Program-made: the position numbers and the translations under genes
Source: Escherichia coli
GTDB taxonomy: Bacteria > Pseudomonadota > Gammaproteobacteria > Enterobacterales > Enterobacteriaceae
Length of the DNA: 64,000 nucleotides
Direction: 5' to 3' (one strand)
NCBI RefSeq assembly: GCF_003334765.1
Contig: NZ_QOWT01000008.1
Part shown: positions 42,876 through 48,341 of the stretch, piece after piece
Numbering within the stretch: position 1 is the stretch's first letter
Layout of the letters: every line of letters starts with the position of its first letter
The notes under the pieces: model-generated
What the model was told of the DNA's origin: nothing
What the model saw: only the letters and a program-made list of their open reading frames with translations
The model's database searches: none

Positions 42876-42960
42876 CCTGGCCTGATAAGACGCGTGAGCG
42901 TCGCATCAGGCATCGTTCACCATTGCCGGATGCGGCGTTAACGCCTTATCCGGCCTACGG
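42876..42960. repeat. REP element cluster
   Basis: Two REP-type palindromes (GCCTGATAAGACGCG...CGCATCAGGC and GCCGGATGCGGCG...CGCCTTATCCGGC) between ypfH and ypfN. Confidence 0.75.
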
Positions 42961-43201: not shown

Positions 43202-44329
43202 TCAGGCGACGAGCTGTTCCATGATACGTTGATACATACGGGCAAGTAGCTGCAGGTCGGCAGCGTTCACACATTCATTAATTTTATGAATAGTGGCATT
43301 GACCGGCCCGAGTTCCACCACCTGCGCCCCCATGCGGGCAATAAAGCGCCCGTCGGACGTTCCGCCTGTGGTCAGTAGCTGCGGTTTAATTTCATTATAG
43401 TGCTCAACCGCGTTAACGACCGCATCCACCAGTTTACCGCGCGCGGTCAAAAATGGCTGCCCGGAAAGCCACCAATCCACCGTATAGCGCAGTTGATGTT
43501 TTTCAAGCAGGGCAAGCACCTGCGCTTTGATCATCTCATCAGTCAGTTCGGTGCTGAAGCGGAAGTTAAACTGCACAAACAGTTCACCCGGAATAACGTT
43601 GTTACTGCCCGTTCCCGCCTGAATATTGGCAATCTGCATACTGGTCGCCGGGAAGAATTCATTGCCCTGATCCCACTCAATAGCCACTAATTCATTAAGG
43701 AAAGGTGCTGCGCGATGTACCGGATTGTCAGCCAGATGTGGGTAGGCAACATGCCCCTGAACGCCATGAATGGTAAGGTTGCAGGTTAATGATCCGCGAC
43801 GACCATTTTTCACCACATCACCTACCACTTCGATACTCGACGGTTCGCCAACCAGGCAGTAATCGAGACGCTCATTACGTGCCATTAACGCTTCGACGAC
43901 TTTTACCGTACCGTTGTGGGCACTGGCTTCTTCATCAGAGGTGATCAGAAATGCCAGTCGCCCCGTATGGTTGGGATGTTGTGCGACAAAACGTTCTGCC
44001 GCCACCACCATCGCCGCCAGCGAGCCTTTCATATCTGCCGCACCGCGCCCGAATAACATGCCGTCACGAATGGTGGGTTCAAACGGGGGATTGATCCAAC
44101 GATCGGCGTCGCCAGGCGGCACCACGTCGGTATGCCCGGCAAAGGCTAACGTTTCACCCTGCCCACGCCATGCCCAAAAATTCTGCGTATCGGCAAAGTC
44201 CATGCGTTCAACGGTAAAACCGATCGCCTGCAAACGTTCAATCAACAAAGCCTGGCATCCTGCATCATCAGGACTCAGGGAAGGGCGGCGAATAAGCTGT
44301 TGTGTCAGCTCAATAACCGGGCACGACAT
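43202..44329 (-). CDS. dapE: Succinyl-diaminopimelate desuccinylase
   Basis: 375-aa [29 protein letters not shown]...; M20 peptidase family. Confidence 0.95.
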
Positions 44330-44332
44330 AGA

Positions 44333-44707
<375 letters not shown>

Positions 44708-45069
44708 TTATGAGAATAAATACTCATTTAAGGGTGAAAACATTTTGCCTGCAAATGATTATCAGGAAATATAACATTATCGAAGTATTCAAATTAACAA
44801 CTATTAAATAATATTAAACATTTTTAACGTAAACATTAAGAATATTCATCTTGTTATCTGTCTGTATTTTAACCAGAATTAAATCAGTATTAGATGCCGT
44901 ATGAATATCTCGAAATGTTGCTGTGTATCACATACAAATCATCACCGCAGGACCATAGTATTTACATAAGATTTGTCCCCCGGAGGTAGTCATCGCAGCA
45001 ATCGAGTAAATTAGCTTCACCACGGTATATTGTTTCCGTAGAATACCCATAATTATAAGAGAGGTTGTT

Positions 45070-45129
45070 ATGATTGAACGTGAACTGGGGAACTGGAAAG
45101 ACTTTATCGAAGTTATGCTTCGTAAGTAA
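45070..45129 (+). CDS. ypfM: 19-aa small protein YpfM
   Basis: ATG preceded by GAGAGG SD; encodes MIERELGNWKDFIEVMLRK; followed by a strong terminator; absent from the ORF track because of its size. Confidence 0.65.
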   Translation: MIERELGNWKDFIEVMLRK

Positions 45130-45190
45130 TTCCTGAGACAAAGTACAAACAGCAAGAACCCGCTGAGCAGGTTCTTAATCGGAAAGTTGA

Positions 45191-45222
45191 AAAAGGCGAC
45201 ACATTGGCATGTCGCCTTTTTT
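45191..45222. terminator. Bidirectional terminator between ypfM and convergent acrD
   Basis: AAAAAGGCGACA-cattggca-TGTCGCCTTTTTT. Confidence 0.7.
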
Positions 45223-45227
45223 ATTGC

Positions 45228-48200
45228 TTATTCCGGGCGCGGCTTCAGCGGGAAGCGGCGGCGCACCAGCACAAAGAACAGCGGCACGAAGTAAATAGCC
45301 AGAATAGTGGCCGAAATCATCCCGCCCATTACGCCAGTACCCACCGCATGCTGACCACCGGAACCGGCACCCGTGCTGGTTGCCATTGGCAATACGCCGA
45401 AGATAAATGCCAGCGAGGTCATCAGAATCGGGCGTAAACGCTGACGGCAGGCGTGGAGCGTCGCTTCAAACAGGTCGTGGCCTTTTTGGTTCATCTCGTT
45501 AGCAAACTCGACGATCAGGATGGCGTTTTTCGCCGATAAACCAATGACCGTTAACAGGCCCACCTGGAAGTAAACGTCGTTTTCCAGCCCGCGCATCCAG
45601 GTTGCCAGCAGCGCGCCGATTACCCCCAGCGGCACGACCAGCATTACCGAGAACGGCACCGACCAGCTTTCATACAACGCAGCCAGACACAGGAATACCA
45701 CCAGCAAGGAAATGGCGTACAGCGCCGGAGCCTGCGCGCCGGAAAGCCGCTCCTGATACGACATCGCCGTCCACTCCAGACCAAAGCCGTTTGGCAGCTG
45801 CTTCACTAACGATTCCATAATATCCATCGCCGTACCGGTACTGACCCCCGGTGCGGCTTCCCCAACAATCTCAACCGCAGAATAACCGTTATAGCGTTCC
45901 AGACGCGGCGAGCCTGTTTCCCAGCGTGAGGTCGCGAAAGCAGAGAAGGGCACCATGCCGCCATCTTTATTTCGGACATACCAGAGATTGATGTCATCTG
46001 GCAGCATGCGATACGGCGCAGCTGCCTGCACATAGACTTTCTTCACGCGACCGCGATCCATAAAGTCATTCACATAGCTCGAACCCCAGGCGGTTTGCAG
46101 TGTGTCGTTAATATCGTCGATAGCAACGCCCAGCGCCTGAGCTTTACGCTGGTCGATATCAATCTGCAACTGCGGACTGTCGTCGAGGCCGTTATGGCGC
46201 ACACGGGTTAGCTCCGGGTTTTCCGCCGCCAGCGCCAGCAACTGATTACTTGCTGCCATCAGCGCATCGTGACCCGCTCCAGCGTGGTCCTGCAACTCCA
46301 TATCAAAACCTGCAGAACTACCAAGACCGCTAATTGCTGGCGGGCTGCTGGCGATAACGCGAGCTTCTTTAATTTGGTTAAACGCCTTCGTTGCACGCTC
46401 GATAATGGCAAACGAGGTGCCGGTCTTACTGTCGCGTTCGCTCCAGTCTTTCAGGCGGATAAACATTCGCGCCACGTTTTGCCCGTTACCCCCAGGGCCA
46501 GAACCAACGGTGGCAAACACCGACATGATGTTGTCTTTTTCATGGGTGAAGTAGTATTTCTCGATTTGCTCAACGACTTTCAGGGTCTGTTGTTGCGTTG
46601 AACCGCTGGGCAACTGTACCGAGGTAGTAAACATGCCACGGTCTTCCAGCGGTAAGAACGACGTCGGCAAACGCAGGAACAGGAACACCATGCCGCCAAG
46701 CAGCAGGACATAAATCACAATCCAGCGCAGGCTACGGTGGAGAATTTTCGCCACCCCTTTTTCGTAGCGTTCGGCGTTGCGGTTAAACATCTGGTTAAAC
46801 CAGGCAAAAAAGCCTTTTTGCCCATGATGCTCACCTTTTTTCAGTGGCTTAAGTAGTGTGGCACACAGAGCCGGAGTGAGGATCATCGCTACCAGTACTG
46901 ACAGCACCATCGCCGCAACAATGGTAATAGAGAACTGGCGATAGATGGCACCGGTGGTGCCGCCGAAGAAGGCCATTGGTACAAATACCGCCGAAAGAAC
47001 CATCGCAATCCCGACCAGTGCCCCCTGGATCTGCCCCATCGATTTACGTGTGGCTTCGCGAGGAGTGAGTCCTTCCTCACTCATAATACGTTCGACGTTT
47101 TCCACCACCACGATGGCGTCATCCACCAGCAGACCGATCGCCAGCACCATCGCGAACATGGTTAAGGTGTTGACGCTGTAACCGAAGGCGTAAAGTACGG
47201 AGAAGGTTCCCATCAACACCACCGGCACGGCGATAGTGGGTATCAGCGTGGCGCGGAAGTTTTGCAGGAACAGATACATAACGAGGAAAACCAGAGCGAT
47301 AGCTTCCAGCAGCGTTTTCACCACGTCTTCAATGGAGGCTTTAACAAACGAGGTGGTTTCATACGCCACCTTGTATTCCAGTCCATGCGGGAAATACTGC
47401 GCCAGCTCGTCGAGACGATTGAGCACCAGCTCCGCTGTCGCCATTTCGTTAGCGCCGGAGGCCAGTTTTACCCCCAGCCCGGAGGCTGGCTTACCATTGA
47501 AGCGGCTAAGATAATCGTATTTCTCCGCCCCCATTTCGACGGTGGCGACATCGCCCAGCCTTACCTCTGAGCCGTCCTGATTGACCCGCAAGGTGATATC
47601 GCGGAACTGTTCTGGTGTTTGCAGCAGTGACTGGGCGTTAATGGTGGCGTTGAGCGCCTGCTTATCGACGGAAGGTGTACCACCAAGTTGCCCAACCGCA
47701 ATCTGCGCGTTCTGTGACTCAATGGCATCAGTGACATCTTTAGCCGTCATCTGGAAACTGTTGAGTTTCGCCGGGTCCAGCCAGATACGCATGGAATATT
47801 GCGAACCATAGGCATCGATATCCCCGACGCCATTCACGCGGCTTAACGGGTCCTGAATATTACTGGCAACATAATCAGCAATATCCTGTTTATCCATCGA
47901 ACCATCGGTAGAGACGAAGGCAATGGTCAGAATGTTGGTATCGCCGGTTTTACGCACCGTCACGCCCTGATTTTGCACCGCCTGCGGTAACTTTCGCATG
48001 GCTGATTGCAGCTGGTTTTGTACTTGCTGCACGGCTTCGTCCGGATCGGTGCCTGCTTTAAAACTTAAAGTGACAGATGCCTGACCGGTGCCACTGCTCT
48101 GAGATGACATATACATGAGATTATCGAGGCCGGTCATATTTTGCTCGATAACCTGGGTCACGGTGTTTTCCAGCGTCTGGGCCGATGCGCCGGGATAGTT

Positions 48201-48341
48201 AGCGGTCACTCGCACATTCGGTGGCGCGAGATCGGGGTATTGTTCAACGGGCAATGAAAAAATCGCCAGGGTACCTGTCAGACACAACAGGATTGCCAGC
48301 ACCCAGGCAAAAATGGGGCGATCAATAAAGAAATTCGCCAT
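45228..48341 (-). CDS. acrD: RND-family multidrug/aminoglycoside efflux pump AcrD
   Basis: 1037-aa [26 protein letters not shown]...; 12-TM RND architecture. Confidence 0.95.

Follow-up and report, generated by a model that had tools for sequence, protein, structure and literature searches.

The ypfM locus of Escherichia coli: a conserved 19-codon gene with a candidate second promoter and a putative ArcZ pairing site in its reading frame

The 64-kb stretch of Escherichia coli DNA analysed here (the window) carries, between yffB and acrD, an open reading frame (ORF) of 19 codons that a preliminary description had put forward as the small-protein gene ypfM, with a ribosome-binding site and a terminator of its own (Table 1). 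The frame is flanked on one side by yffB (44333-44689, minus strand), dapE and ypfN and on the other by acrD (45228-48341, minus strand); it is divergent from yffB-dapE and convergent with acrD, the same layout as in the annotation of K-12. Sequence comparison found positions 44690-45230 to be 100% identical to E. coli K-12 MG1655, in which the same ORF is annotated as ypfM (b4606, 2590807-2590866, minus strand). Set against K-12 YpfM, the DNA, the protein, the position relative to acrD and yffB and the published promoter hexamers are all identical, with no difference between the two. Every one of 5426 complete E. coli genomes contains the ypfM region, usually with the annotation “protein YpfM,” and the NCBIfam equivalog model NF033843 (small_YpfM) is matched over profile positions 1-19 of 19 with 59.2 bits (E = 2.4e-16), the curated cutoff being 33 bits and the query having been padded with one X to 20 residues. 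The identification as ypfM is borne out by the K-12 identity, the NF033843 score, the coding-type evolution described below and published mass spectrometry. It had also been remarked that the gene is missing from the mechanical ORF track, and indeed the floor of that listing is 20 aa, while YpfM has 19. As a gene call, ypfM is already known: it is catalogued, annotated in RefSeq and endowed with its own NCBIfam model, its product is a regular find in mass spectrometry, and it was reportedly predicted in 2001. In five RefSeq records of E. coli Res13 strains, the DNA is 100% identical over the query and no ypfM feature stands at the match, so that automatic annotation of this 19-codon gene is inconsistent.

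Table 1. Coordinates of the features of the ypfM unit in the window.
Feature	Position	Strand	Details
Candidate distal promoter	44918-44959	+	TTGC-N6-TCACAT (44918-44933) and CATAGT (44954-44959)
Proximal sigma70 promoter	45016-45044	+	-35 TTCACC, 17-nt spacer, -10 TAGAAT
Shine-Dalgarno sequence	45059-45064	+	GAGAGG; 5 nt (TTGTT) to the ATG
ypfM CDS	45070-45129	+	ATG at 45070, 19 codons, TAA at 45127-45129; product MIERELGNWKDFIEVMLRK
Predicted ArcZ seed site	45084-45092	+	ACUGGGGAA; codon 5 (base 3) to codon 8 (base 2)
Match to Rfam RF01409 (STnc250)	45109-45228	+	cmscan, 37.5 bits, E = 7e-6, full-length model
3′ UTR	45130-45187	+	Least conserved part of the ypfM unit; contains the hairpin 45154-45176
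Escherichia-specific hairpin	45154-45176	+	AAGAACC...GGUUCUU, -9.6 kcal/mol, z = -1.8
Bidirectional intrinsic terminator	45188-45228		A-run, GGCGACA/UGUCGCC stem, U-run; serves ypfM (+) and acrD (-)

The Shine-Dalgarno sequence stands as first described, with the exception of its distance from the start codon, given as six nucleotides and in fact five. The segment AAGAGAGG is nearly invariant across 72 sequences (the 71 intact loci introduced below and the window sequence), and the Shine-Dalgarno sequence is unpaired in the predicted fold of the mRNA. The combination of a Shine-Dalgarno sequence and a short ORF opening with ATG was found 5 times in the window vs. about 21 times in block shuffles. 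Such a combination occurs readily by chance, and the case for ypfM therefore rests on conservation and experiment.

Conservation was assessed in 80 Enterobacterales loci, ranging from Escherichia to Yersinia, Dickeya, Erwinia, and Pantoea, that were found through the neighbouring yffB protein; because the loci are anchored on yffB, the sample is without bias towards genomes that bear ypfM. Of the 80, 71 have an intact YpfM-like ORF. The start is ATG in 72 of 72 sequences and the stop lies at codon 20 in 68 of 72, the consensus of the peptide being M-I-[ED]-x-E-L-G-N-W-K-D-F-I-E-x-M-L-R-K; in Salmonella, the product is identical at 19 of 19 residues. Variability is concentrated at third codon positions, with summed column entropies of 4.74, 4.81, and 13.94 for codon positions 1, 2, and 3, respectively (72 sequences), and dN/dS, pooled over comparisons with the window sequence, amounts to 0.08-0.10 for ypfM vs. 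0.10 for yffB. The ypfM ORF is under purifying selection at the protein level and, together with its Shine-Dalgarno sequence, promoter and terminator, forms a unit conserved across Enterobacterales. Convergent acrD lies about 107 nt away in 67 of the 71 ypfM loci. Of the loci without ypfM, 7 have a flank long enough for a judgement, and acrD is likewise missing from 6 of them. In Yersinia and Dickeya, ypfM is retained in the absence of acrD, hence the linkage between the two genes may be merely positional.

The conserved signal could in principle belong to an antisense ORF of 75 aa (44928-45155, minus strand), whose third codon positions coincide with those of ypfM, such that the two frames cannot be told apart by a period-3 signal alone. 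This antisense frame has no stops across the overlap with ypfM in 70 of 71 loci. However, a stop can arise in it solely opposite sense codons starting with TA (Tyr) or CA (His/Gln), and in YpfM there is no more than one codon of this kind, namely His4, which occurs in some lineages; the openness of the antisense frame is thus dictated by the sense sequence. Beyond ypfM, the antisense frame stays open for about 19 codons per side, which is the expectation by chance, its remaining parts align with many indels, and conservation drops abruptly outside 45059-45129. The antisense ORF starts with TTG and lacks a Shine-Dalgarno sequence, and mass spectrometry backs the sense product. On the strength of the chance-length flanks and of an openness imposed by the sense codons, the antisense ORF was rejected as the source of the conservation, and we give it practically no chance of being right.

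The YpfM peptide is made in E. coli. Top-down mass spectrometry detected it with 100% coverage and with its formyl-methionine retained, and it was also observed by DIA and PRM in the same 2025 study, which mentions an earlier detection by Schmidt et al. (PMC12529367). Translation, on which the preliminary description had staked the gene, is therefore answered by published data (PMC12529367). Of the conditions tested, low-manganese minimal medium alone gave detection by PRM (PMC12529367). Elsewhere in the literature, ypfM is reported to be down-regulated in aerosolised cells, and a MarA ChIP site is reported in the ypfM/yffB spacer of Salmonella.

The transcript of the orthologous Salmonella locus was first encountered as STnc250, at acrD/yffB, which was recovered in Hfq co-immunoprecipitates with 24 reads vs. 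6 in the control, a 4-fold difference (Sittka 2008, PMC2515195). On Northern blots, STnc250 is a stable RNA of about 220 nt whose abundance depends on growth phase (PMC2515195). The ypfM mRNA is thereby a short, stable, Hfq-associated transcript, named STnc250 in Salmonella. Should the locus be a non-coding Hfq-binding sRNA and nothing else, with a fortuitous 19-codon ORF, its entry in Rfam, where the Salmonella homologue is listed as an sRNA gene, would be accounted for, and so would the ease with which short ORFs behind a Shine-Dalgarno sequence arise. Against this stand the period-3 variability and the dN/dS of about 0.1 in ypfM, a start and a stop held in register in 68-72 of 72 sequences, and the detection of the intact peptide by mass spectrometry; moreover, the discoverers of STnc250 noted that it contains the ypfM ORF and reclassified it themselves as a small mRNA (Sittka 2008, PMC2515195). 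A purely non-coding locus is refuted by the mass-spectrometric detection of YpfM and the codon-level conservation, and its likelihood is accordingly negligible. The “sRNA” label that STnc250 bears in Rfam is historical and misnames what is a small mRNA.

The product itself contains four acidic and four basic residues for a net charge of 0, and its hydrophobicity averages -0.12; the helical hydrophobic moment, at 0.55, lies in the top 2% of permutations. From its sequence, YpfM is predicted to be a soluble amphipathic helix with a single hydrophobic face made up of I2, L6, W9, F12, I13, M16, and L17, and we infer that it most likely acts by binding a larger protein. A search of the PDB with the padded peptide returned no match, a weak test for 19 residues. 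Like MntS and SgrT, which are soluble regulators that bind larger proteins, YpfM is tiny, conserved, conditionally expressed and devoid of an enzymatic fold. It differs from AcrZ, which binds AcrB, a paralogue of AcrD, in that it has no transmembrane segment.

Downstream of the ORF, the strong bidirectional terminator announced some 60 nt past the gene was confirmed. The stem-loop (45188-45223, with a G-C core from 45194) begins 58-64 nt past the ypfM stop codon and folds with -18.7 kcal/mol on the plus strand and -18.0 kcal/mol on the minus strand (z about -5.5), none of 200 shuffles being as stable. The terminator ends 5 nt from the stop codon of acrD (45228-45230), which makes it bidirectional and common to ypfM and acrD. 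At least 58 of the 71 loci have it downstream of the ORF, and RNAalifold recovers 11 pairs, 8 of which show compensatory double changes. Rfam matches to CsrC over the same segment were discarded as generic hairpin matches far under threshold. The hairpin that precedes the terminator in the 3′ UTR is present in E. coli and E. albertii and absent from Salmonella and Citrobacter; in a scan for terminators, it was also scored as terminator-like on the minus strand. The supplements of the 3′-end mapping study eLife 62438 list no entry for ypfM.

The Rfam model of STnc250, which represents the Hfq-bound 3′ portion of ypfM mRNA in Salmonella, covers the terminator and the 3′ UTR together with the last part of the ypfM ORF, and its match to the window remains below the gathering score of 42. 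The Salmonella locus aligns with the window throughout and is orthologous to it. It differs in its 3′ UTR, which measures 67 nt in Salmonella vs. 93 nt in E. coli, where it is 26 nt longer and bears a hairpin of its own. This longer and divergent 3′ UTR explains the sub-threshold score, the hairpin at 45154-45176 being the main cause. Over the whole window, the sole Rfam match above its gathering score is naRNA4 (RF02564, a REP-type nucleoid-associated RNA element) at 42879-42955 on the minus strand, just past ypfN, with 92.7 bits, and no tRNA gene is found in the window.

Upstream of the ORF, a consensus scan of 44300-45400 yielded TTCACC-17-TAGAAT as the sole sigma70-like site. This proximal promoter predicts a transcription start site (TSS) near 45051, a leader of 19 nt and a transcript of about 172 nt. 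T45039 and A45040 of its -10 hexamer are invariant out to Yersinia, Dickeya, and Erwinia, and 54 of 66 loci have the first base of the hexamer at -31 relative to the ATG. A heptamer of NarL type in this region (TACCCAT, 45045-45051) was set aside, as it is conserved in close relatives only and is expected by chance. Between the two versions of the K-12 coordinates there is a shift that we take to be 1977-1978 bp, in agreement with the plasmid coordinates. After this shift, the sigma70 ChIP-seq peak that was labelled ypfM and placed at 2588903 in the old coordinates (Myers et al., 2013, PMC3688515, Table S2) maps to about position 45055 of the window, and thus fits the proximal promoter in E. 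coli. Its signal is 321.6 under aerobic vs. 816.5 under anaerobic conditions, with an adjusted p-value of 1.7e-58 (PMC3688515, Table S2). Genomic SELEX with RpoD holoenzyme assigned the same hexamers to ypfM (Shimada et al., PMC3946193).

Further upstream, two conserved islands stand out amid a variable spacer, namely TTGC-N6-TCACAT, a CRP/FNR-like site centred at 44924.5, and an invariant CATAGT. The composite pattern has no other occurrence within the 64-kb window. The module is present in 39 of 72 loci and missing from 33, and the distance from the centre of the site to CATAGT is 29.5 bp in 32 loci and 28.5 bp in 7. In a class II activator-dependent promoter, the activator site is centred at -41.5 and the -10 element lies at -12, and the spacing of the distal candidate matches this geometry if CATAGT is a -10 element. 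The right half of the site (TCACA) is perfect for CRP, and the left half (TTGC), a weak match to CRP, resembles an FNR half-site. FNR was dropped as the factor acting at the site, since ypfM has no entry, apart from that in the sigma70 table, in those supplementary tables of Myers et al. (2013) that were searched (PMC3688515). Initiation at this module is predicted at about 44966 and would give a leader of 104 nt. In Salmonella, the predicted RNA measures 226 nt from the distal promoter vs. 146 nt from the proximal one, and the species of about 220 nt seen on Northern blots fits the former, not the latter. The distal module is therefore a well-motivated but unproven candidate for a second, activator-type promoter of ypfM.

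The spacer that holds these elements (44690-45069) had been characterised as AT-rich and devoid of any other ORF. Its composition (31% G+C vs. 52% for the window) and the lack of any annotated gene in K-12 RefSeq agree with this, although mechanical ORFs of 22-33 aa are present. The spacer is not empty, for it contains the promoter or promoters of ypfM, the promoter of yffB and a region of H-NS binding reported between ypfM and yffB (Shimada et al., PMC3946193). A single Hfq-CLASH chimera joins ChiX to sense-strand RNA from 44886-44915 (plus strand), upstream of both predicted ypfM starts, and some transcription of the spacer is thus explained by neither promoter. Insertions of IS1 are found inside the ypfM/yffB spacer in at least 15 RefSeq genomes of E. 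coli. In strain ET82, an IS1 lies in the part of the spacer towards yffB, at a place equivalent to 44773-44782 and some 290 nt before the ypfM start codon; homology to the window then stops within yffB at 44658, where a gene for an N-6 DNA methylase follows. On the far side of the spacer, yffB (44333-44689) is a validated SdsR-repressed mRNA in Salmonella, where the reporter spans -97 to +75 (PMC5137417), and its expression rises in an anaerobic fur mutant. As yffB and ypfM are both linked to small RNAs, the latter through the contacts described below, the spacer would serve two small-RNA-controlled genes.

RNA hybrids between ArcZ and ypfM were captured on Hfq. By CLASH, 13 such hybrids were recovered in exponential and transition phase, more than for most pairs visible in the table, and the pair is flagged there as also present in RIL-seq data; the ypfM arm is UAUGAUUGAACGUGAACUGGGGAACUGG, which corresponds to 45069-45096 in the window (PMC7213987, supplementary file 3). 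A single SdsR hybrid uses the same arm (PMC7213987, supplementary file 3). The seed of ArcZ is conserved and acts at translation-initiation regions (PMC7213987; PMC11322559). Within the CLASH arm, ACUGGGGAA is predicted to pair with UUCCCUGGU, the 5′-terminal seed of processed K-12 ArcZ, through 9 bp that include two G-U pairs (-12.7 kcal/mol). When distinct orthologous ORFs were paired against K-12 ArcZ, all 9 seed pairs were kept in 39 of 53. The synonymous variants CUA and UUA at Leu6 still pair with the seed, and the third base of codon 7, which faces a C of the seed, is G in 45 of 49, whereby the rare GGG is kept. The energy of the seed duplex reaches only the 0.096 quantile of random synonymous recodings. 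Energies of long ArcZ:ypfM duplexes (RNAduplex) were dropped as evidence, being no better than those of recoded or shuffled controls (0.79 and 0.48). The literature searched yielded no experiment on the effect of ArcZ on the level of YpfM or of ypfM mRNA.

The synonymous sites of ypfM are themselves unusually fixed. In the same 56 genomes, the commonest codon is used at conserved residues with a mean frequency of 0.87 in ypfM vs. 0.69 in yffB (Mann-Whitney, p = 4e-4), and synonymous divergence (pS) is 0.34 in ypfM, about half the 0.66 of yffB. Codons 5-10 are the most fixed in ypfM, with Gly7 encoded by the rare GGG in 98% of genomes, vs. GGC or GGT at 32-88% for the conserved glycines of yffB. 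Two rare codons, GGG7 (45088-45090) and CTT17 (45118-45120), are fixed across genera, and at residue 15, which varies between V, D, G, and A, the first base (45112) stays G in 48 of 53 sequences. The fixation of GGG7 fits pairing with ArcZ, and that of CTT17 and G45112 is in keeping with the 4-bp GAAG/CUUC hairpin at the start of the STnc250 model of Rfam. Synonymous fixation could instead reflect preferred codons (GAA, AAC, AAA, CGT) or an open initiation region, an explanation that GGG7 and CTT17 alone resist. From these patterns, the coding sequence of ypfM appears to be shaped also by ArcZ pairing. In its Hfq-dependent contact, its use of the ArcZ 5′ seed and its proximity to the translation-initiation region, ypfM resembles the ArcZ-repressed mRNAs tpx, sdaC, mlaA, and fbp. 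It is linked to ArcZ by interactome data and complementarity, and, unlike in these mRNAs, its site lies inside a 57-nt ORF, where it doubles as codons 5-8.

The same contacts could be read in the opposite direction, with ypfM as a dual-function RNA that not only encodes YpfM but also has a trans-acting role on Hfq, for instance by titrating ArcZ, and possibly SdsR, in the manner of a sponge; the conserved GAACUGGGGAACUGG stretch would then be a regulatory seed or a decoy. The transcript originally entered the catalogues as an sRNA that binds Hfq (Rfam STnc250), it is short and stable with a strong terminator, its ArcZ hybrids are comparatively numerous, the SdsR hybrid falls on the same arm, with the UUUCCCUGG motif being common to SdsR, and its synonymous sites are more constrained than those of neighbouring yffB. 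On the other hand, CLASH and RIL-seq cannot distinguish a target from a sponge, the 3′ UTR is the least conserved part of the unit and holds no conserved seed, and the strong selection on the amino-acid sequence of YpfM implies that the RNA is not merely a decoy. Such a trans-acting role is, in our estimation, rather unlikely. The more specific proposition that the ORF is doubly coded, with the nucleotides of residues 5-8 docking ArcZ, possibly also SdsR, and the tiny, abundant ypfM mRNA on Hfq buffering free ArcZ besides, is held to be just as doubtful. SgrS/SgrT, AzuCR/AzuC, and Spot 42/SpfP are likewise short Hfq-associated transcripts that encode a very small translated protein, but the resemblance of ypfM to them is architectural only. 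If the dual role were nevertheless true, STnc250/ypfM would be a genuine dual-function RNA through which oxygen status is connected with the ArcZ regulon.

Taken as a whole, including its proposed mechanism, the best explanation of the locus is with high probability that of ypfM as a monocistronic gene for a 19-residue cytoplasmic protein. In this mechanism, transcription would start near 45051 from the sigma70 promoter TTCACC-17-TAGAAT and, in Enterobacteriaceae, probably also near 44966 from the distal, activator-dependent promoter, with an occupancy by RNA polymerase that would be higher without oxygen. The transcript would end at the hairpin that it has in common with convergent acrD, and its U-tail would provide the binding site for Hfq. 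The 5′ seed of ArcZ would pair with codons 5-8, on the margin of the ribosome-binding window, and this pairing most likely lowers the synthesis of YpfM and/or the stability of its mRNA when ArcZ is abundant, i.e., in aerobic growth and at entry into stationary phase. A role for this pairing is the explanation proposed for the fixation of synonymous sites, the rare GGG7 included. YpfM, presumably a neutral amphipathic helix too polar to span the membrane, would then most likely dock its hydrophobic face on a larger protein.

YpfM is among the shortest validated bacterial proteins. Beyond a gene that was already known, the fresh points are the ArcZ site inside the ORF with the accompanying synonymous constraint and the candidate distal promoter, while the identity of STnc250 with the ypfM mRNA serves as a reminder. 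The locus offers three leads, namely putative ArcZ pairing in an ORF with constrained synonymous sites, increased anaerobic polymerase occupancy and a candidate second promoter of activator type, which together suggest that ypfM may be under oxygen- or growth-phase-dependent control.
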